DNA from: an uncultured virus (IMG/VR IMGVR_UViG_3300042545_002012)
Lineage: Duplodnaviria; Heunggongvirae; Uroviricota; Caudoviricetes
Direction: 5' to 3' (one strand)
Length of the DNA: 20,000 nt
Virus record (IMG/VR): IMGVR_UViG_3300042545_002012
Positions 2,402 to 12,887 of the stretch are shown here, in pieces. The notes under the pieces are model-generated. The model saw only the letters and a program-made list of their open reading frames with translations. It was not told the DNA's origin and made no database searches. A program made the translations under genes and the position numbers. How positions within the stretch are numbered: position 1 is the stretch's first letter; the number at the start of each line of letters is the position of its first letter.

Positions 2402-2932
2402 ATGTATGGAATAGAAACTGAGGACAAGACTACAGCTTTAGCCAGTGCGCTTAGTTATTGGGTTTTTCGCTGTAGAGACAAGAGTAAAAGTCCTGCCATG
2501 GGCTTAAAAACATGGGAATATTTTCAAAGCAGTATCCAAAATGCTGCTATTCCCTCTCGCAATATCGACGACTACATTGAGAATTTAGCCAAGAAGCTAA
2601 TTGTTGCACACCTCAACCCAAAAGAATGGACTCGCATAATCGCGCCAAAACAAGTGGTTTTACGGGCTACTGTGAATGACGATGGCAGTATGGGAGACAT
2701 TCAACAGAAAGACTGCGATCAAAATATTGATCTTTGGTGGTTGGGATGGAACGACATTTTAGCCAAATTGAAATATACGCACGGGATAAGCGATCGCCAT
2801 ATTCTGAATATGTGCAAATCCAAACCTCACGTGATTACCACTTTTTGTCGCGTTCGCTTTGAAAGCGATCGCGCTTTGAATATTCCAGAAGAAACAGAAA
2901 ATACTCTAGATGTAGAGGCTAATAATGCTTAA
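2402..2932 (+). CDS. cas11: Probable type IV-B small subunit (Cas11-like)
   Basis: 176-aa, apparently helical protein (TWEYFQSSIQNAA...SRNIDDYIENLAKKL) directly upstream of and overlapping csf2, the position where IV-B loci carry Cas11. The call rests largely on context. Confidence 0.6.
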   Translation: MYGIETEDKTTALASALSYWVFRCRDKSKSPAMGLKTWEYFQSSIQNAAIPSRNIDDYIENLAKKLIVAHLNPKEWTRIIAPKQVVLRATVNDDGSMGDIQQKDCDQNIDLWWLGWNDILAKLKYTHGISDRHILNMCKSKPHVITTFCRVRFESDRALNIPEETENTLDVEANNA

Positions 2933-4130
2933 TTACAACCCACACGATCGCCATAATATCAAGCTACACCTGCAAATCACATTGCTACAGCCCTTGTCTC
3001 ATATCAGTGAGTCCGTAGGCAATCAAACCAATTTACGAACGATGAAAGTGACAGATTTAGAGGGAAATCCCTCTGAGGTGTTTTGTCTTTCTGGTAACTC
3101 GCTACGCAATCGTATTTTGAGACGCTGTGGTATTGATTCGTTCCTCTCTCAGATTGGTGTGCAAGTATCGCCAACGATGCATCACGCTCTATTTTGTGGC
3201 GGCGCGATTGATGGTGGCACGGGTAATGACTTAGATTTGGATAAAAAGATTAGACAGTTTTTGCCATGCCTCTCAGTGTTAGGAACTGCCAAACCTAAAG
3301 GATTGTTTGGTGTATCCGATGCTCAAATGGTGCACGGTCGGATCGCTGTTGGTGATGCTTATTTGGCTTGTGTAGAAAGTGCTGAATATATTTATCGACA
3401 GTTTCCTCCTGCGCTACCCATTGACGTAATTTCAGCGCTAGAGCAGATTATTGATGGTAAAGACTTACAGCATAGTCAACGAGTGAATCAATGGCTAGGA
3501 ATTGATACCAAGGTTTCTCAATACGATCTAAAGGCATTGTTTGCTGAATGGATGCCGTTCTTGGGAGAAAGGCTTCGATATTATTCCGATTGGCTTACCT
3601 ATAGCCAAAAGACAAGGCGCGATTCACTTCACGATCCTAACTTTGCAAAACATTTGATCGGCGCTACTCCAGAACCTCAAAAGATGATTTCTCAAGGCGA
3701 TCTATTTGGTATAGTTTCGGAGCCTGAAACCAAGAAAGGTAAAAGCGAAAAAGCAAAGCCCGAAAAAGAGAAAAGCCAACAGATGATTATGGGTAATTGG
3801 CTACTCCAAACAGGTGCTACTTTATACTCTTATTGGAGCGCAAACGTCACCAGAATCGAAGAAGGATTTATTGCAGATGCTTTACTCAAGTTTGCAGAAT
3901 CGCCATACTTGGGCGGTCAATTAGGAACGGGTTGCGGACTTTGCTCTATGCAGTTTTGGTTTGAGGCTGCGGAGGGCGATCGCGGTGAGTTTATGACGAT
4001 TACTCCTCATGCTCAAAAGCTAAGCGATCGCGCTACTGAATCTCATGCAAGGTATAAAGAATACCTCGAAGATTACAAGGGCTTTCTAGCTGATTCTAAG
4101 AGCGATATTAGGAGTTTATTGAATGGATAA
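2925..4130 (+). CDS. csf2: Type IV CRISPR backbone subunit Csf2 (Cas7-family RAMP)
   Basis: ITLLQPLSH first RAMP strand, SGNSLRNRILRR, HALFCGG, PCLSVLG, GRIAVGDAYLAC and the Gly-rich loop LGGQLGTGCG. Confidence 0.88.
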   Translation: MLNYNPHDRHNIKLHLQITLLQPLSHISESVGNQTNLRTMKVTDLEGNPSEVFCLSGNSLRNRILRRCGIDSFLSQIGVQVSPTMHHALFCGGAIDGGTGNDLDLDKKIRQFLPCLSVLGTAKPKGLFGVSDAQMVHGRIAVGDAYLACVESAEYIYRQFPPALPIDVISALEQIIDGKDLQHSQRVNQWLGIDTKVSQYDLKALFAEWMPFLGERLRYYSDWLTYSQKTRRDSLHDPNFAKHLIGATPEPQKMISQGDLFGIVSEPETKKGKSEKAKPEKEKSQQMIMGNWLLQTGATLYSYWSANVTRIEEGFIADALLKFAESPYLGGQLGTGCGLCSMQFWFEAAEGDRGEFMTITPHAQKLSDRATESHARYKEYLEDYKGFLADSKSDIRSLLNG

Positions 4131-4809
4131 CCTCCAAATAATTGCACACATGGCAACGCCGCTAGTCGCCTATGATGATTGGAGTCCTAGCTTCGATGCC
4201 CTGATTGAGTATCAATTGTTAGATCAATTAGGGTTAATCACGCCTAATCCAACGGCTGCGGATGCTGAAAAGAATCTGCCCTTGATTTTTGATGAAATGC
4301 CGATCGCTCGGAAGACGCTCAAAGGCGAGTGGTATTGGGCCGTGAGTTCACCACACTACATCGAAAATCATCAACAAACTCAGCGTTACCGTAAGCGATG
4401 GGACAAGCAAGAACTACACCTTGATTGGGGTAAAAAGAAAGCTAAGGTTGATAGTTCGCAAGGGCATTTTAAAGCCTATGACTTGCCAAGGTATGATCGC
4501 GAAATGCAGACTATACACTGGTTTGCGATTGGCAATGCTGACAAGATTAGCGAACTAATTCTAAATGTTACGAACCTTGGCAAGAAGCGATCGCAAGGTT
4601 GCGGACAGGTACACAAATGGGAAGTACTTCCTTTTGAACATGATTGGCATTTGTGGAGAGGTGATAGTTTAGCCCGACCAATGCCAATTAATATGATTGA
4701 ACAGCCTCAAGCTATCAATATGATGAACTGGGGGTGGCGAACACCGTATTTTCTGCAATCCAATAGAACTATATGCTATATGCCAACGGATAATGTATGG
4801 AGAGAATAG
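4123..4809 (+). CDS. csf3: Type IV CRISPR subunit Csf3 (Cas5-family RAMP)
   Basis: LQIIAHMATP start, FDALI, W.WAVS, G.FKAY..P, W.AIG and G-loop LGKKRSQGCGQV..W.V followed by RPMP; lies directly after csf2. Confidence 0.85.
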   Translation: MDNLQIIAHMATPLVAYDDWSPSFDALIEYQLLDQLGLITPNPTAADAEKNLPLIFDEMPIARKTLKGEWYWAVSSPHYIENHQQTQRYRKRWDKQELHLDWGKKKAKVDSSQGHFKAYDLPRYDREMQTIHWFAIGNADKISELILNVTNLGKKRSQGCGQVHKWEVLPFEHDWHLWRGDSLARPMPINMIEQPQAINMMNWGWRTPYFLQSNRTICYMPTDNVWRE

Positions 4810-5465
4810 AACGCGATGCATTCTTAGCTCATGCAACACTGCCAACATTTAAGCGCAAAGTTGAGAAAGCTAAAGAGATTATTCGAGAGGCTTTAGCGAT
4901 CGCTCCTTCTTATGTTGCGGTGTCATGGGGTAAAGATTCAGTTGTAATGCTTCATTTGGTGCAGTCGATTTGTCCTGATATTTTGGCTATTTCTTTTGGA
5001 CATCATGAAAGAGAAATGATTAGTAATTATGCTGAAACAGAATCAAAATATCAGGACAAATTTGGGCTAAACATTCAAACTATTTTGATGCAAGGCGATC
5101 ATGTCCCTAACAAAGTTAAGTCACAAAAATTATGGATTGATTATCCTGTCGCTTTTGTTGGATTGCGGATAGAAGAAAGCGCAAAACGTAAAGCAACCTT
5201 GCTAAAAAATGGCGCTATCTATCAATACAAAAAAGGAGATTACAGAGCTTGCCCTGTTTTTAATTGGAGTGAAAACGATATTTGGGCTTATACGCTTTCC
5301 CATGAATTACCATACCTAAAAGCCTATGATTTAGGCGCAAAACGAACTACAGATCATGTCAGCAAAAATACTAACAATCAATATCAAGCTGCAAGATTAG
5401 AAGAGTTTCGAGCGATCGCCCCAGAATATTTTGAATACCTAAAAGGATTGTTGTATGCAAATTAA
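4797..5465 (+). CDS. cysH: CysH-like/PAPS-reductase-family protein (adenine nucleotide alpha-hydrolase fold), the type IV-B accessory gene
   Basis: PP-loop SWGKDS, GLRIEES..R and P.FNWSENDIWAY...HELPY...YD; lacks the canonical Cys motifs and ECG tail of true PAPS/APS reductases. Confidence 0.85.
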   Translation: MERIERDAFLAHATLPTFKRKVEKAKEIIREALAIAPSYVAVSWGKDSVVMLHLVQSICPDILAISFGHHEREMISNYAETESKYQDKFGLNIQTILMQGDHVPNKVKSQKLWIDYPVAFVGLRIEESAKRKATLLKNGAIYQYKKGDYRACPVFNWSENDIWAYTLSHELPYLKAYDLGAKRTTDHVSKNTNNQYQAARLEEFRAIAPEYFEYLKGLLYAN

Positions 5466-5814
5466 AAATTATTTAGATGCTGATTACTGGTATCAGATGT
5501 ATGGCAGTCAAGCTGTCGGATTGCCACTGGTAAAAAAAGATAACTTTGCTGCTGATATGTTGAATTTTGCACCTAATGAAAAAACTTCTCTTCATACCCA
5601 TGAGGGTGATCATATTTTGTTTGGAGTAGAGGGGTCTGGATGGATTGATTGCGGCGATGAAACACAACCAATCATCAAAGGAACTTGCTATTTTGTTGAA
5701 GGTTCGCAACCTCATAGGGTAAGGGCTGGAAATGACGGGCTTTTTCTTTTATCTATTGCAAACAAGCATCAACCTGTAGATAGTGAAAAAAGATTGGTGA
5801 TTATCAATGCCTAA
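5455..5814 (+). CDS. Cupin-domain protein (Cupin_2-like)
   Basis: Metal motif 1 LHTHEGDHILFGVEGSG and motif 2 GTCYFVEGSQPHRV. Confidence 0.85.
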   Translation: MQIKNYLDADYWYQMYGSQAVGLPLVKKDNFAADMLNFAPNEKTSLHTHEGDHILFGVEGSGWIDCGDETQPIIKGTCYFVEGSQPHRVRAGNDGLFLLSIANKHQPVDSEKRLVIINA

Positions 5815-6394
5815 CTGCAATTTTACAGAATTTTTATTCAGTATTGAAGGCTCTTTAATCCCTAGAAACTACCATTACTGCCTCTATTCTGCTTTAACGG
5901 GATTAGCTCCTAAGTTCAAAGATAACCCTGAGTGGGCGATCGGTAGAATCAGTAACACAAATATTTTTGACGATCGCACATTACGTTTAACTCAAAGCAC
6001 TATAAAGCTACGTTGCTCCAAAGATTTAATTACAGAGCTAACGATGCTTTTTGATTGTCAAATCCATTTAGGCAAAGAGTTGATTAAACTCAAGCTGGTT
6101 AATGGCACAGAGCTAAAATCTCAAGAGAATCTAGCGGCTTGGGTATCAATTAAAACCGACAACAATCGTGAACCCGATCTTACTAGGTTTGCGGTGTCGC
6201 TAGGCAAGCAACTAGCAAAGTTTGATATTGATACACTGCCAACAATAGGGCGCAAGGAGCAGCTAATTATTAAACAACAGCCGTGTGCTGTATACCCTGT
6301 AATGTTTTCAGATTTGCATCCTAACGAGTCTTTGACATTACAAGAGAAAGGGTTGGGAGGTCGCAAACACCTAGGATGCGGGTTTTTTGAATAA
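5807..6394 (+). CDS. cas6: Cas6 endoribonuclease, resembling the I-MYXAN/Cmx6 type
   Basis: N-terminal F.IEG..IP.NYHY.LYSAL and C-terminal SL.LQ.KGLGGRKHLGCGFF Cas6 G-loop. Confidence 0.88.
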   Translation: MPNCNFTEFLFSIEGSLIPRNYHYCLYSALTGLAPKFKDNPEWAIGRISNTNIFDDRTLRLTQSTIKLRCSKDLITELTMLFDCQIHLGKELIKLKLVNGTELKSQENLAAWVSIKTDNNREPDLTRFAVSLGKQLAKFDIDTLPTIGRKEQLIIKQQPCAVYPVMFSDLHPNESLTLQEKGLGGRKHLGCGFFE

Positions 6395-6412
6395 ACTAAC
6401 TTCACATCCCCC

Positions 6413-6440
6413 AGCCGTTGCATTCGCGACGGCTTTTTTT
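6413..6440 (+). terminator. Intrinsic terminator closing the cas operon
   Basis: AGCCGTTGC-ATTC-GCGACGGCT 9-bp stem (one G-U pair) followed by a T run, 18 nt after the cas6 stop. Confidence 0.85.
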
Positions 6441-6459
6441 GTGCGGATAAAATTAATTT

Positions 6460-6498
6460 GGTTTTACTATTGACAAAACCTATAGGTCGATCAATAAT
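6460..6498 (+). promoter_or_regulatory. Sigma70-type promoter with overlapping palindromic operator candidates
   Basis: TTGACA (6470-6475), 17 nt, AATAAT (6493-6498); inverted repeat GGTTTT-N9-AAAACC (6460-6480); perfect palindrome ACCTATAGGT (6478-6487); AAGGA RBS before ATG 6530. Confidence 0.7.
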
Positions 6499-6529
6499 AG
6501 ATCATTGAGTTAAACAAAGGAACAAAGCA

Positions 6530-7207
6530 ATGCTACTAGGTAATCTTGATCTTAAATGCGGCGAAGACTACGAAGGGACTGTATCAACAGATATTTTTGT
6601 TGATGAGGATAGCCTGGAGATCTCCAGCATTCCCTACACTATCAACGAAGAAGGGGTAGATCAACTCCTTACTTTGTTAGAGGAGTACGGGATTGAGCCC
6701 GTCGAAGCGTTTGAAGATTGGCAAGAAAGCTGTATGGAATTGTCCTTTCATGTAGCTCCACTTCTTTCGGGAGTTGACGCTACACAGGGTCAACTCTTGG
6801 AGAAAGCAATCTCCACAACTGTTAAATGCTGGAAAGACGAGTTCGGAAACAACAAGCTAGATCCCGCCTCGTCTGACTGGGTTGACGAGACATCCATTGA
6901 GGGGATAGAGGAAACCCCTCTGATCAGGGAGCGCTTTAATATTGAAGTGCTTCTAAAAATAGGCACAGATAATGCCTTGTCAGCTTATTATTGGGAGTTT
7001 TTAAAGGAAAGGGTTACTATCCAAGAAGTGCGGATCGCTGATCGCTATCCATCGGATGGCAATATCCCATTGACAGTTCATTTTATGTCTGATGGATCTG
7101 CTATCGTTTTGAATCCTCTAACAGGGGATGAATTTTATCCAACCGTCGAAAGTTTTGATAAAGCTTACGCTGAATTTGATTACGATTGGAATCAAGTAGA
7201 TGCCTAG
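6530..7207 (+). CDS. Highly acidic hypothetical protein, 225 aa
   Basis: Own promoter and RBS; about 48 D/E versus about 13 K/R by manual count. Confidence 0.8.
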   Translation: MLLGNLDLKCGEDYEGTVSTDIFVDEDSLEISSIPYTINEEGVDQLLTLLEEYGIEPVEAFEDWQESCMELSFHVAPLLSGVDATQGQLLEKAISTTVKCWKDEFGNNKLDPASSDWVDETSIEGIEETPLIRERFNIEVLLKIGTDNALSAYYWEFLKERVTIQEVRIADRYPSDGNIPLTVHFMSDGSAIVLNPLTGDEFYPTVESFDKAYAEFDYDWNQVDA

Positions 7208-7508
7208 AGGCGGCAACCATGGAGGCGGTAGACCTAAGAAGCCGCCCGAAATAAAGGCTAAAACATATTCCTACTGTTTTAGCCCAATCTTAGGAGATGC
7301 GATCGCCGCCCTTGGTGACAACGCATCGCAGTCAATCCAAGCAATTGTGCTTAAGTATTTTGGGATTACTCCCTTGCAATGGGAGATATACACAACTTGG
7401 ATCGAATGCGATCGCAAGGTTGTCGCAACAGCCGAAAAGTTAGGGTGCGATCCTGAGAACATCAGGCAAGTCGTTGCCAAGGTTGAACGGAAATTAACAA
7501 AAACATAG
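7200..7508 (+). CDS. Small DNA-binding protein (GGGRPK hook plus C-terminal HTH)
   Basis: MPRGGNHGGGRPKK N-terminus; HTH-like KVVATAEKLGCDPENIRQVVAKV. Confidence 0.7.
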   Translation: MPRGGNHGGGRPKKPPEIKAKTYSYCFSPILGDAIAALGDNASQSIQAIVLKYFGITPLQWEIYTTWIECDRKVVATAEKLGCDPENIRQVVAKVERKLTKT

Positions 7509-7539: not shown

Positions 7540-7549
7540 GTGTCGCCAC

Positions 7550-7592
7550 GCATAGAGAAATATCTATGCTTTGCGGGGTTGGGATTATGGAT
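7550..7592. repeat. Copy 1 of dispersed dyad element CATAGA-N6-TCTATGCTTTGCGGG...ATGGAT
   Basis: GCATAGA-gaaata-TCTATGC inverted repeat; 15-nt TCTATGCTTTGCGGG identical to 12858-12872. Confidence 0.75.
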
Positions 7593-8554: not shown

Positions 8555-9127
8555 ATGAATGAAAGACTACGTTTGTCGATAACTTTCAATCATCCACCTT
8601 ATCCCAATAAACCTGTATCTTTGCCAATAAAAACGCTTGAAGAAACAATCAAGGAAGTACTTGCAGAGAGAGATAAAAAGATAGCGTTAGGTATCATACC
8701 TAATGAAGAAATTGATGTTATCGGATCGTGTGAATATAAATTCAAGGTGTTATCTCGCAGCAACTTTAAACCGTGCGATTTTCACGCTGATTTTATTAAG
8801 GCGATTGATTATTTTAAATTTCCTAAAATTTATCTTGATTCTGTCAACAGTTTTAATGCTTTCCCAGAAAGTAGAGGGATCTATTTTTGCACTAGAAATT
8901 CTGAGGTTTGGTACGTTGGCAAAGCCAATAACTTTCGATCTAGATGGCGAAATCATCACAAGCTTGAAGCATTAAAAACGATTAAAGATGTTGTGATTTA
9001 TTTCCAAGAAATTGACAAATTTTCTAGCGAAGAAATTCATAAAGCTGAGCAAGAGTATATTGAAATGCTCCAGCCAGTTTTTAACAACACATCAAACCCT
9101 GAAAAGTATTTAAGGATTGCATTATGA
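8555..9127 (+). CDS. GIY-YIG nuclease domain protein
   Basis: GIYF...WYVGKANNFRSRWRNHH...EQEYI...QPVFN, containing the GIY, YVG, Arg, His, Glu and Asn signatures. Confidence 0.85.
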   Translation: MNERLRLSITFNHPPYPNKPVSLPIKTLEETIKEVLAERDKKIALGIIPNEEIDVIGSCEYKFKVLSRSNFKPCDFHADFIKAIDYFKFPKIYLDSVNSFNAFPESRGIYFCTRNSEVWYVGKANNFRSRWRNHHKLEALKTIKDVVIYFQEIDKFSSEEIHKAEQEYIEMLQPVFNNTSNPEKYLRIAL

Positions 9128-9984
9128 GATTTTTTACGCATGAAATTGCATCACGCAATGACGATCGCATTTTTCAGCTAATCGATATTCACGGGTTAGG
9201 AGGTTACGGATTTTTTTGGGTAATTCTTGAGGAACTTTACGGTTCTGAAGAAAACGGATTTCAAATCGAAGCAACTGCGATTTGGATGAAACGCTTGGCG
9301 CGATCGCTAAATATTACTGACGATCGCACAATGATCCGATATTTTGACACGTTGGCAGATTTAGGGCTTATAGATAAGCAGCTTTGGCAAGAACATATTA
9401 TTTATAGCCAAGGCGTGATGAACCGATCCGATGCTTACATGCAGCGTAAAGCAAAAGAAGCAGAAAAGAAGCGCAGACAACGATCTCAGGCTAAAGAGTC
9501 CCAAGAGACAATAGAGTCTGTCCCTAGGGAGTCCCTAGGGACAGAAGATGTGTCCCTCAATGTCCCTCTTCCAGATCCATATTCATATTCAGATCCAAAT
9601 ACAAATTCAAATGTAGAGAAGAATATATATACGTCGATTCAAAAAATTTCTGATTCCGATTTTGATGTTTTCAAAGAAATTTGGAATAGAGATCGCCCGA
9701 AACATTGGGCAGAATGCCAAAGCCTGAATAAAGACCGAATTTCTAAACTTAAAAAGTTTACTCGTGAAAATGGCGATCGCAGTTTAGAGATTTTTCAGGA
9801 CGCTTTGAGCTATGCCAGATCGGATCATTGGTGTAACAAGCCGCAGACTAAACTCACGATCGATAATTTCTTGACCAACAATAAGCCTGTCAGTTGGGCA
9901 GAAAAAGCAGCGTCACGCGATTTTGTTGGTGTCTCAGTAGGAAATACACATGAAGACTGGTTAAATGCCTTAGAGGGGCTATAA
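9124..9984 (+). CDS. Phage replication initiator/replisome organizer (DUF4373/Lin1244-like N-terminal wHTH)
   Basis: FFTHEIASRNDDRI..L....G..GYG.FW.ILEELY N-terminus, charged helix, low-complexity linker carrying iterons, and a C-terminal F...WN...W...TIDNFL domain. Confidence 0.8.
   Translation: MRFFTHEIASRNDDRIFQLIDIHGLGGYGFFWVILEELYGSEENGFQIEATAIWMKRLARSLNITDDRTMIRYFDTLADLGLIDKQLWQEHIIYSQGVMNRSDAYMQRKAKEAEKKRRQRSQAKESQETIESVPRESLGTEDVSLNVPLPDPYSYSDPNTNSNVEKNIYTSIQKISDSDFDVFKEIWNRDRPKHWAECQSLNKDRISKLKKFTRENGDRSLEIFQDALSYARSDHWCNKPQTKLTIDNFLTNNKPVSWAEKAASRDFVGVSVGNTHEDWLNALEGL
9498..9630. other. Putative phage replication origin inside the initiator gene
   Basis: GTCCC repeats at 9498, 9520, 9531, 9552 and 9562; perfect inverted repeat TCTGTCCCTAGGGA-G-TCCCTAGGGACAGA (9517-9545); AT-rich tract downstream. 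Confidence 0.7.
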
Positions 9985-9988
9985 AACG

Positions 9989-10450
9989 ATGATTGACAAA
10001 ATTGTTTTTTCTGAAGAGCTAAAAGATCTTGCTGATTGGTTTTCTAAATCAATTTCTGACTCAATGAAAGCCCGTTTGTATTTGATTCTTAGTTCCGAGC
10101 TTTCAACTGAAGAATTTCAGCAGTCAATAATCTGGGCATACAAAAACTGTAAATTCTTCCCCGCCCCTATTGAATTAATTAATGCAGTCCTTGGCACTCT
10201 TGACGATCGCGCCTTGATTGACTGGGCAAATATTTCTAGAGATACCTCTTTACTTTCCCCTGTTGGACGTAAAGCGCTACAAGCGATCGGCGGCTCTAGT
10301 ACTGTTCGCTTTAGTGAAAAACCTGAATTTCTGAGAAAAGAATTTTTTACTGCATACAAAGCGTTTGCTGTAAAAGCCGCACCCGATGATTTACGATCAC
10401 GCCAAATTGAATCGCAAGAAGCTAAAACTTTAATGGGAGTAAATGATTAA
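9989..10450 (+). CDS. Initiator-associated protein (DUF6475/helicase-loader-inhibitor-like)
   Basis: KFFPAPIELI, ALQAIGG and FLRKEFFTAY motifs; lies directly after the initiator. Confidence 0.6.
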   Translation: MIDKIVFSEELKDLADWFSKSISDSMKARLYLILSSELSTEEFQQSIIWAYKNCKFFPAPIELINAVLGTLDDRALIDWANISRDTSLLSPVGRKALQAIGGSSTVRFSEKPEFLRKEFFTAYKAFAVKAAPDDLRSRQIESQEAKTLMGVND

Positions 10451-10452
10451 TT

Positions 10453-11016
10453 ATGAAATTACAAGCAGTCAAGATTGAGCGTGTAACCGATGGCGATCGC
10501 GAAATACAATTACCTTTCAAGTGCTTTGCTTGTCACGATGGCGGATTGGTTGGAGGTAAATTTTTAGCCGAGTTTGTGGAAGGTGAAAGCGATATACCTT
10601 TTATCTGCAATCGTGATGAATGTGAAGCGGGGAAACTTAGGCGATCTGCGTGGTCTGCAAATACTGATCGTGATTATCAGAATGCTTTTGATGTAAGGCT
10701 TGATCGCTACAATTGCAACGATATCCACAATTGGGAAAAAGATATTTTTCTTAAGGATATTATCAAACGGAATCAAAACAAGCCTGTAATCATTGAGTTC
10801 TCTGAGGCTGTAGAACGCCGCCAAACTATCATCGCAAGGATTAAAACCGTAGCTACTGCACTAGGTGGATTGCAAGAGAATTTTGATAAAGCTGTGAAGT
10901 TTTACAGCAATCAAGACTCAACTGACTATCCAAGTTGGGAAGCTCTTTCTAATGCAGCTCTTGAGGTTTTACTCAAGAAAGTGGAGCAGAAGCTGAGTGA
11001 AAGCGATGATTTCTAA
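10453..11016 (+). CDS. Hypothetical protein with a probable Zn-binding site (CFACHDGG...C....C..G)
   Basis: Four spaced cysteines; operonic spacing. Confidence 0.65.
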   Translation: MKLQAVKIERVTDGDREIQLPFKCFACHDGGLVGGKFLAEFVEGESDIPFICNRDECEAGKLRRSAWSANTDRDYQNAFDVRLDRYNCNDIHNWEKDIFLKDIIKRNQNKPVIIEFSEAVERRQTIIARIKTVATALGGLQENFDKAVKFYSNQDSTDYPSWEALSNAALEVLLKKVEQKLSESDDF

Positions 11017-11686: not shown

Positions 11687-12850
11687 ATGAAACCATCCCT
11701 ACCCATCTGCATCCCCTCTATCCCAGATCCCACAAACAGCCCCGTAATATGGCGACAAGTTGCGCCGATCCTAAGTGCGATCGCAGAACATGAGCAAAGG
11801 CGCAAGCTGAAAGATGATCGCGCTATTGCCACTAATGCGTTATTCGTAGCTCGGTATTTGGTGTATAAAAATCAATGGGCTAGCCTATGGCAGTCGCTAT
11901 TAGATCGCAACGTTTTGCATATTGGTGACGCGCCAAAACTACAACCGCCAAAAGCTAAGCCAGAACCAGAGTTAGAGACGATCGCATCTCCACCGCCAAA
12001 ACCAAAAAGCGATCGCCCAAAGACAAAGCCGCCCAAGAATGTTGCAAAGCCGAAAGCCAAAAAGCAACGTAAGCGGATTCGTAACCGCGAAAGATTAACA
12101 GATCGCAAATCACCAACGTACTTATATGTTTTTGCGTGTTTAAAGCCTTGTTTGAGTGGTTTGCTATCAATCCTAAATCTATACAGCTTTTTTGCCTACA
12201 GTGCCCCGTTATGCCCACGACAAAAACCACCGATCCGCGATCGCCCCGATGGTCAGCGGATCAAAGCTTTGCTTGCTTACAAGGCTAGCGGAGGTGAATA
12301 TGCAAGCCTAAAAGTGTATCTACCATCGCTCAAAAAACGGTATAGGATGCACCCTGATGTTCAGAAACTTTTATTAGATTGGAGTAATCCAAAACGCACA
12401 CGCACCCGCAAGAAAGTTGAATCAGACAAAGCCAAGGGAGTCGCTAAACGGATAATCTCGACTGAGCAGATTAACTCAGTGCTTACCGATAAATGGCAGG
12501 ATGCCGTAACAATTGCTTACAAGCTAAATGATCTGCTAGGCGAGAATATTGAGCTAAGAAAATTATCCAAACTTCTCTACAATCGCTCTGTAGCAGGGGA
12601 AATCCATCGCTACAATCGTGATCATCATGAGATTTCTTTCTTCTCACGGGTGCAAGCAACAGAATTTGAGAACGAATGGATGACGCTAGAGATGGCTTAT
12701 CAATTGGCTGTGTCGCGAGGTTGTCCATTTGCTAGGAATACCTTTAGGAAAACCCACAGATTCGATTACAGCGCTTACGGATTAGAGTTCCGTAAAGCCG
12801 CCCCTGACAACGAGTGCAGTCTGCTACGGTATCGCGATATCCAGCCATAG
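11687..12850 (+). CDS. Large basic hypothetical protein with Pro/Lys-rich linker and possible C-terminal wHTH-like DNA-binding domains
   Basis: Long ORF; probable start ATG 11687; last gene of the replication operon. Confidence 0.65.
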   Translation: MKPSLPICIPSIPDPTNSPVIWRQVAPILSAIAEHEQRRKLKDDRAIATNALFVARYLVYKNQWASLWQSLLDRNVLHIGDAPKLQPPKAKPEPELETIASPPPKPKSDRPKTKPPKNVAKPKAKKQRKRIRNRERLTDRKSPTYLYVFACLKPCLSGLLSILNLYSFFAYSAPLCPRQKPPIRDRPDGQRIKALLAYKASGGEYASLKVYLPSLKKRYRMHPDVQKLLLDWSNPKRTRTRKKVESDKAKGVAKRIISTEQINSVLTDKWQDAVTIAYKLNDLLGENIELRKLSKLLYNRSVAGEIHRYNRDHHEISFFSRVQATEFENEWMTLEMAYQLAVSRGCPFARNTFRKTHRFDYSAYGLEFRKAAPDNECSLLRYRDIQP

Positions 12851-12887
12851 ATTTTAGTCTATGCTTTGCGGGTTTATTGTGATGGAT
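12846..12887. repeat. Copy 2 of dispersed dyad element CATAGA-N6-TCTATGCTTTGCGGG...ATGGAT
   Basis: CATAGA-ttttag-TCTATG; same arms, same 6-nt spacer length and ATGGAT at the same +36 offset as copy 1. Confidence 0.75.

Follow-up and report, generated by a model that had tools for sequence, protein, structure and literature searches.

A probable type IV-B CRISPR effector operon with its own Cas6 in a cyanobacterial phage: a complex that may borrow its guides

What use could a phage make of a CRISPR effector complex when it encodes a Cas6 protein and has no array beside it? The question is raised by six genes at positions 2402-6394 of a 20,000-nucleotide (nt) stretch of one uncultured virus of the Caudoviricetes (IMG/VR record IMGVR_UViG_3300042545_002012), here called the window; counts given for the window cover these 20 kb only. 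The genes were identified with high confidence as a subtype IV-B effector operon, in which Cas11, Csf2 and Csf3 would form the backbone of a ribonucleoprotein, a CysH-like PP-loop protein would be the ATP-using signature partner, and Csf1 would be encoded in trans. A complete IV-B protein set under selection, together with Cas6, occurs without a source of guides in at least one complete sister genome (G002). The best overall explanation, an IV-B module working with guides borrowed from the host, is plausible and stops short of being probable.

The operon consists of six co-oriented open reading frames (ORFs) and a terminator (lengths in amino acids, aa):

2402..2932, plus strand, 176 aa: cas11, type IV small subunit (PADLOC profile and structure match)
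2925..4130, plus strand, 401 aa: csf2, type IV Cas7 backbone (PADLOC, TIGR03115 and PDB profile matches)
4123..4809, plus strand, 228 aa: csf3, type IV Cas5 (PADLOC, TIGR03116)
4797..5465, plus strand, 222 aa: cysH-like gene for a PP-loop protein of the CasCysH type (Pfam PAPS_reduct)
5455..5814, plus strand, 119 aa: cupin, a single Cupin_2 barrel with a four-His metal site (Pfam Cupin_2)
5807..6394, plus strand, 195 aa: cas6 of the Cas6/Cmx6 family (PF09559, TIGR02807)
6413..6441, plus strand: intrinsic terminator closing the operon (hairpin and T run)

An earlier note, made from the sequence of the window alone, had named these six genes, described overlaps of 8-13 nt between them and placed a terminator 18 nt after cas6. 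All of this was borne out: the ORF listing gives successive overlaps of 8, 8, 13, 11 and 8 nt, the gene identities agree with Pfam, TIGR, PADLOC, PDB profile and structure matches, and a hairpin (6413-6434; 9 pairs, 6 of them G-C) begins 18 nt past the cas6 stop and leads into a T run. The hairpin is kept in eight of nine aligned sequences (the window and seven of eight relatives, L031 deviating), and its changes among relatives are loop substitutions and a C-to-T exchange preserving a G-U pair. A promoter-like TTGACA-17-AATAAT for the next gene lies past the terminator at 6470-6498. The identical six-gene order was found in 4 of 23 related viral contigs (L004, L009, L011, and L021), and pairwise ratios of nonsynonymous to synonymous substitutions against close relatives are 0.07-0.28 for all six genes, which indicates purifying selection; the operon is therefore not a chance arrangement.

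General curated libraries clearly recognized only three of the genes (PAPS_reduct, Cupin_2, and Cas6), and cas11, csf2 and csf3 were decided by the PADLOC profiles. Csf2 matched Csf2_0_IV over its full length (E 1.8e-42) and TIGR03115 partially (E 1.4e-5), and its profile retrieved type IV Cas7 chains only from the PDB (11fs_C Cas7c, 2.2e-7; 7jhy_e Csf2, 2.8e-5; 8rc2_A Csf2, 8e-5). Csf3 matched Csf3_0_IV (E 1.8e-46) and TIGR03116 (E 2.2e-17), both over the full length, the latter under its curated cut-off. Cas11 was recognized by typeIV_Cas11 (E 1e-12), a profile that matched a distant homologue located between csf1 and csf2 in another locus (L076) at E 1.9e-38. The AlphaFold2 model of Cas11 (predicted local distance difference test, pLDDT, 82) had 7jhy_h of the type IV-B complex as its top match among 48,161 representative chains compared with VIA-align (Z 9.2, root-mean-square deviation [rmsd] 2.9 Å over 115 aa; runner-up Z 4.8); a Foldseek search of the same model against the PDB gave no match at E up to 0.001. 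A Cas11-like small subunit sets IV-B and IV-C apart from IV-A, and the window holds Csf2, Csf3, the Cas11-like subunit, and an adjacent cysH-like gene, all marks of IV-B.

No csf1 was found in the window by hidden Markov models (HMMs) or by tblastn at E up to 10, an absence that had been taken for a trait of the element. The relatives contradict this. Intact csf1 is present tens of kb from the operon in G002 (10,004-10,657, opposite strand) and G003 (66,300-66,953), two close relatives carrying this Cas6-bearing operon, whose csf1 copies are 97.7% identical, and another intact copy lies near the operon in G004. The window aligns to about 55.6-76.6 kb of G002, so csf1 would fall outside it; judging from the distant copies in G002 and G003, the gene very probably exists there in the phage of the window too. 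Cas1/Cas2, DinG/RecD, Cas10-HD and other nuclease families were missing among the window ORFs scanned, as the earlier note had said of cas1/cas2, DinG and an interference nuclease, except for an unrelated free-standing GIY-YIG ORF at 8555-9127.

The Csf2 profile retrieved 80 viral loci, 78 with a csf2 ORF and 50 with enough flank for counts; neighbour genes were labelled by their own HMMs, and cluster representatives were checked against public libraries. Among the 50 well-flanked loci, cas11, csf2 and csf3 are present in all, cysH in 49, csf1 in 42, a Cmx6-type Cas6 in 16, a second Cas6 family (PF10040) in 8, a Coq4-like protein in 8, and the cupin in 3. Cas6 had been regarded as an unusual extension, a view that the survey overturned, with some Cas6 in 24 of the 50 loci; 12 IV-B loci with Cas6 are on record as rare exceptions to the typical locus, described there as having neither array nor Cas6 (PMC7038947). 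The Cas6 of the window is accordingly treated as a variant trait and not as exclusion from IV-B. All eight loci without a local csf1 have a Cmx6-type Cas6 at the operon end, and the window falls in this group.

The survey also returned rearranged loci. In some, csf2 and csf3 are separated by variable inserted ORFs, which the window does not have (L025, 125 aa; L034, 181 aa; L035, 186 aa; L043, 187 aa; and several in L060); three of these ORFs were scanned and gave no Pfam match at E up to 0.01. Additional csf3, cysH and csf1 copies follow the first cas11-csf2-csf3-cysH set in L066:1699-8665.

The window's Cas6 scored 114.9 bits against PF09559 (cut-off 26.7) and 104.3 bits against TIGR02807 (cut-off 98.85), and its only sequence match in the PDB is 8fcj_B, Cas6 of a type I-B CRISPR-associated transposon (CAST) Cascade (E 6e-10). 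The C-terminal Gly-rich loop is invariant across the family, and RNA binding by the window's protein is likely on this evidence. The DHGY motif of the family reads NYHY in the window's clade, the His being exchanged for Tyr and a His appearing one position later; 8fcj_B has Asn there. Of 301 genomes sampled from the cyanobacterial phylum, 35 have a Cmx6-type Cas6 that scores above the cut-off, as against none of 14 controls. In six of eight regions fetched, an array is located no farther than 10 kb from the cellular gene, so that suitable host substrates exist.

The CysH-like protein scored 67 bits against PAPS_reduct (cut-off 22.5), and its profile matches phosphoadenosine phosphosulfate reductases of the PDB at about 1e-18. 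Residues S43, G45, K46, D47, and S48 of its SxGKDS loop are invariant among 29 homologues, and no Cys is. This agrees with the description of CasCysH as a PP-loop protein without the catalytic cysteine, which in true CysH is located in a C-terminal motif (PMC8175902).

Where the guides could come from was sought in the phage genomes. There is no direct-repeat array in the window, so the statement that no array adjoins the operon extends to the whole 20 kb. A k-mer array scan found none in G004 or in G002, which is complete (direct terminal repeats, CheckV 100%) and has the Cas6-bearing operon. The wider claim of an array-less element held for G002 and failed for G003, where a five-repeat mini-array was found that belongs to a Cas12f-like gene. 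At up to 9 substitutions, the window, G002 and G004 contained no solitary copy of the G003 repeat. Three 22-nt matches to cellular Cmx6-type repeats, with 5 substitutions each, were noticed in G002 and G003 and rejected, their number being about that expected by chance.

The phage Cmx6-type Cas6 may bind, and perhaps cut, repeat hairpins, the most likely source being host CRISPR RNA precursors (pre-crRNAs) from Cmx6-type class 1 arrays; a phage array would not be required. Cas6 would pass the RNAs to Csf3 and Csf2, and the phage complex would be armed with borrowed guides, which would at the same time be withdrawn from the host effectors. The loaded complex, without nuclease or helicase, would bind complementary nucleic acid, probably that of rival mobile elements targeted by the host spacers; retention of the target-side subunits Cas11 and Csf1 points to such target binding and not to a bare sponge. 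That CysH is nearly universal and that its metal-protein partners vary along with it favours a chemical output: the CysH-like enzyme with its cassette partner (the four-His cupin, or a Coq4-like protein in sister phages) could act, depending on ATP and a metal, on the bound RNA, the target or a small molecule. As a whole, this mechanism of a nuclease-free Csf complex, loaded by Cas6 with host guides and given its output by CysH and a partner, is put forward tentatively. The use of host crRNAs by transposon-borne Cas6 and the recruitment of foreign crRNAs by array-poor IV-C complexes, both taken up below, are published precedents for it.

Several observations weigh against it. No Cas6 is present in 26 of the 50 well-flanked loci, from which it follows that the core function is independent of a phage Cas6. 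Cleavage by the window's Cas6 is uncertain given the displaced motif His. At about 30% identity, even the closest cellular Cas6 is too remote for the specificity of the phage protein to be inferred from it. The sole IV-B complex studied, that of Mycobacterium sp. JS623, is described as binding heterogeneous non-CRISPR RNA and not co-expressed CRISPR RNAs (crRNAs) (PMC7937560, PMC8175902). Apart from the terminator, the search for an RNA partner in the window gave no conserved hairpin as a candidate, nor did it give an array or a single repeat unit. Contigs of two RNA libraries from the same study lie on segments of csf2 (2852-3159) and cas6 (5980-6229) with 1-2 differences, and read depth across the window was uneven in those libraries and flat in the DNA run; the contigs are a weak hint of transcription, give no transcript ends, strand or level, and do not prove it. 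CysH-cupin fusions were not detected by Pfam in 22 long cupin homologues scanned, and three unannotated N-termini of such homologues aligned to the CysH profile with a probability below 1% (hhalign).

The best-surviving alternative, itself rather unlikely, dispenses with guides. The Csf proteins would form a filament on heterogeneous or phage-specific non-CRISPR RNA, with Cas6 bound to a hairpin of a phage or host transcript as a nucleating or structural subunit. CysH with its partner would modify that RNA, or a nucleotide, and thereby regulate phage genes, protect RNA or take over host metabolism. The RNA bound by the JS623 complex, the lack of an array in the window and in complete G002, and the displaced candidate catalytic His of Cas6 in the window's clade all fit this proposal, as does the position of the operon among early, replication and nucleotide-metabolism genes (dCTP deaminase, AAA kinase-like, replication initiator, and methyltransferases). 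A structured RNA that could serve as the scaffold was, however, not seen: none is conserved near the operon, Rfam at gathering thresholds gave no match in three array-bearing loci or the window, and the sole hairpin that is conserved belongs to an ordinary terminator. The retained Cas11 and Csf1, like the invariant loop by which Cas6 would bind RNA, fit a guide-and-target architecture.

An anti-CRISPR sponge is unlikely. Here Cas6, Csf3 and Csf2 would absorb host pre-crRNA and crRNA and starve the host effectors, target binding being unneeded. The hypothesis has been published for IV-B (PMC8175902), the benefit to the phage would be direct, its own Cas6 would compete with host Cas6 at the repeat, and the Cmx6-type systems counted above in the cyanobacterial phylum provide something to absorb. 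It leaves unexplained, however, why CysH is present in 49 of 50 loci, why Cas11 and Csf1 are conserved, and why there are partner cassettes, and about half of the loci have no Cas6 to do the absorbing.

The weakest alternative, that a phage-borne array elsewhere on the genome guides the module as a conventional crRNA-guided system for inter-phage conflict, is quite improbable. Its main support comes from G003, which shares the window's whole operon (93.7% identity over 4,375 nt) and has, 31 kb away at 46,614-46,916, five 37-nt repeats with 34-36-nt spacers and one 12-nt spacer. Cas6-processed class 1 crRNAs carry 8-nt handles, and the minus-strand RNA of this array, with a G-U-containing hairpin of -10.3 kcal/mol compared to -3.0 for the plus strand, ends in AUUGGAAG, which resembles such handles. 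The array, however, directly follows, in the same direction, a 581-aa gene that matches Cas12u2/Cas12f profiles over their full length (E 1.9e-104). The same arrangement, a Cas12u2/Cas12f-like gene of 558-581 aa and then a 5-7-repeat array, was found in L115:2501-4530 (equal to G003 46.6-48.6 kb), L116, L117, and L118. It is present in G003 and G005, and the Cas12f-like gene is absent, like the array, from G002 and G004. The G003 repeat is common to four viral contigs, two of them with truncated csf2; G005 retains its seven-repeat array despite this truncation. The repeat is unlike those adjoining cellular Cmx6-type cas6 genes, and among the loci compared, the only matches to spacers of the phage arrays were further copies of these arrays in related records (L109, L115-L118; L054, L055). 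From the Cas12f-like neighbour, the absence from G002 and G004, the retention in decayed G005, and the repeat mismatch, the arrays with the G003 repeat were assigned to a separate mobile type V system and not to the IV-B module. A conventional array plus csf1 elsewhere on the element had been named beforehand as a finding that would make the locus a standard subtype; csf1 was indeed located elsewhere in relatives, and the arrays went to type V.

A second, independent case of type V beside IV-B is L054:10179-13081 (and L055), where a 622-aa Cas12-like protein (Cas12u2 profile E 9e-58) adjoins an 11-repeat array 0.9-3 kb downstream of csf1 of another IV-B operon. The 2025 classification depicts a plasmid on which IV-B neighbours a V-B3 variant and a mini-array (PMC12669027). 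The recurring proximity is noteworthy, and these two cases also speak for the phage-borne array. In L060:11918-13078, a seven-repeat array (37-nt repeat) truncated by the locus end abuts a 233-aa minus-strand ORF without a Pfam family, just downstream of an IV-B operon with a Coq4-like gene and csf1. In L022 and L023 (G005), at about 9878-10357, csf2 is reduced to its last 119 residues, which are fused to the 115-aa ORF upstream of it, and only part of csf3 is left; this lineage is losing the IV-B module and keeps the Cas12f array. Csf2 labels that an iterated HMM of the 115-aa ORF had produced were discarded as drift through this fused, truncated gene.

The chemistry proposed for the module would lie with CysH and its partner. 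The cupin scored 35.3 bits against Cupin_2 (cut-off 27.2), residues H47, H49, H53, and H87 are invariant among 27 homologues, and its AlphaFold2 model has a pLDDT of 96.7. A search of 1.84 billion proteins gave 189 representatives of the family at E up to 0.001. The cupin gene immediately follows and overlaps cysH in seven of seven cases, including one locus on the opposite strand. In phages with 93-96% identical Csf2, two arrangements occur: a window-type cysH (96-98% identical) with the cupin, and a cysH 55-61% identical with a Coq4-like gene (short in some loci) or with no partner (L005/L028). In a third, found in slightly more distant phages, a cysH 27% identical is followed by csf1. Near-identical phages exchange cysH and partner as one unit. 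In a quick maximum-likelihood tree, CysH proteins preceding the cupin or the Coq4-like protein form one clade of 17 (Shimodaira-Hasegawa-like approximate likelihood ratio test, 100), and those preceding csf1 form another. The cupin is one of two swappable partners, each with its own CysH variant, and the other is the Coq4-like protein. This protein, up to 258 aa long, fills the cupin slot between cysH and cas6 (L047:8797-9573, L043:9138-9905, L031, and others) and matches Pfam Coq4 in its C-terminal part (E 2.2e-6). The L030 copy is shortened to 117 aa.

The nearest solved structure of the cupin is 9ug7, the sulfonamide synthase SbzM (profile E 2.8e-27; Foldseek template modeling score 0.83, rmsd 1.1 Å, 31% identity), and several uncharacterized cupins score only somewhat below it. 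SbzM is a cysteine-dioxygenase homologue that oxidizes L-cysteine to 2-sulfamoylacetic aldehyde (PMC10989515). The likeness offers a hint at the cupin's chemistry and is not an assignment, substrate and reaction being non-transferable at this distance; the earlier idea of a sulfur-linked role for CysH and cupin gains from this cysteine-oxidizing relative one lead. To our knowledge, it is the first concrete chemical lead for a CysH partner. Carried further, CysH and the SbzM/cysteine-dioxygenase-like cupin might be a two-enzyme sulfur-nucleotide output stage of an RNA-guided complex with borrowed host crRNAs, which on meeting its target would make or attach an adenylated oxidized-sulfur product, either as a signal or toxin or as a mark on the bound nucleic acid. 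This is a very long shot; if true, it would give type IV-B its missing effector chemistry, and the logic of the signal or toxin version would be comparable to cyclic-oligoadenylate signalling in type III.

Among the closest described systems is IV-B of actinobacterial plasmids (Mycobacterium sp. JS623, PDB 7JHY; PMC7937560, PMC8175902), which likewise has Cas11, Csf2, Csf3 and an adjacent cysH-like gene and, as described, no adaptation genes, helicase, nuclease or local array. It differs in residing on a plasmid and not on a virulent-looking cyanophage. In comparison to it, csf1 lies outside the operon here (in trans in relatives), Cas6 and the cupin are added, and sequence similarity between the proteins is very remote (E 2.8e-5 for the Csf2 profile against 7jhy_e). 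A virus of Bathyarchaeia, 'Fuxiviridae', also carries an IV-B effector and a CysH-like gene on a viral genome, with a proposed role in counter-defence or mobile-element conflicts; it has csf1 in the locus, a two-repeat mini-array and an archaeal host, and the portion of the account available mentions neither Cas6 nor a cupin (PMC10848311). Type IV-C shares Cas11, Cas7 and Cas5, mostly lacks arrays and adaptation genes, and sometimes has Cas6, and its array-poor complexes are reported to recruit crRNAs of co-occurring systems (PMC13676074). The best PDB match of the Csf2 profile is a chain named Cas7c (11fs_C), a further likeness to IV-C. In contrast, IV-C is described as chromosomal, with a Cas10-like HD large subunit and no CysH-like gene (PMC13676074), compared to Csf1 (42 of 50 loci) and CysH in the window's viral family. 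The Cas6 of the cyanobacterial type I-B CAST Cascade (8FCJ) belongs to the same Cas6/Cmx6 family and also sits on a mobile element, but it works with Cascade and a transposase and is only about 25-30% identical, and no transposition genes are present here. Type I-B, I-F and V-K CASTs are reported to bind host crRNAs through Cas6 (PMC11656645). SbzM (9UG7) shares with the window's cupin the mononuclear metal cupin barrel and differs in its length of 215 aa (matched over residues 58-171) and its role in antibiotic biosynthesis (PMC10989515).

The earlier note had wondered about an undescribed IV-B variant in cyanophages. Phage-borne IV-B (PMC10848311), an occasional IV-B Cas6 (PMC7038947), and the sponge and scavenging hypotheses (PMC8175902) are already in print, and the locus is therefore not a new kind. 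Not found in print were how often viral IV-B loci carry Cas6, the substitution of cas6 for csf1 at the operon end with csf1 in trans, and the CysH-tied cupin and Coq4-like cassettes; nor did the literature search find a report joining a cyanophage with type IV or linking a cupin to CysH in a CRISPR context, and Al-Shayeb et al. 2022 (Cell), which lay outside it, may describe such loci. The function and complete architecture of IV-B are still called unclear in a 2026 paper (PMC13676074), and a natural variant bearing Cas6 and a cupin could help to reveal the function. The near-identical phages are natural experiments: some have Cas6 and others do not, the cupin or the Coq4-like protein accompanies the matching CysH, csf1 lies in cis or in trans, and a separate Cas12f array is present or absent. 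Given a culturable pair of host and phage, the RNA carried, the supply role of Cas6 and the activity of CysH would become directly testable.

The operon is carried by a tailed phage, roughly 75-80 kb long, of freshwater cyanobacteria. Its neighbours in the window are phage-typical (dCTP deaminase, AAA kinase-like protein, GIY-YIG ORF, replication initiator, DUF5131, two adenine methyltransferases, and a tail-fibre-like protein), and the octamer GCGATCGC, which we take to be the HIP1 signature of cyanobacteria, occurs 33 times compared to 0.23 expected, so that both the phage setting and the cyanobacterial host signal noticed before were substantiated. Close relatives are viral contigs of 70-80 kb, two of them with direct terminal repeats, and Csf2 homologues were binned with Pseudanabaena and other cyanobacterial metagenome-assembled genomes (MAGs). 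The window's sequence recurs in lake and freshwater metagenomes, 18 runs containing at least half of the sampled words; the 20 runs with window words span 14 studies, one of which may be the source. A megablast of the window against GenBank phages gave no match, and a transfer RNA search of the window found none. The Csf2 profile search of genome contigs returned 19 loci, none from the phage's host genome or a prophage; the nearest of these, 44% identical, are on short Dolichospermum and Spirulinaceae MAG contigs.

Upstream of the operon, a conserved 115-aa ORF of no known family (2026-2373) overlaps the preceding AAA-kinase-like gene by 4 nt and ends 28 nt before cas11. The gap between this ORF and cas11 contains no terminator or promoter-like site, so the six genes may share a transcript with it. 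Between the cas6 stop and the terminator, a 42-nt indel that includes a short inverted repeat around a GCGATCGC site is found in L025, L028, L030, L032, and L039 and is absent in the window, L027, and L036. A segment of 1.9 kb at 5420-7298 (cupin, cas6, and the next gene) is free of HIP1, the window mean being one HIP1 per 600 bp, and G+C falls to 0.368 in 5001-6000; this segment could be a more recent acquisition. Elsewhere in the window, a 47-nt motif occurs in two copies (7546-7592 and 12841-12887; 70% identical), each after a gene end and composed of a 7-bp hairpin followed by CTTTGCGGG and ATGGAT, and the pair may be a phage terminator or regulatory element.

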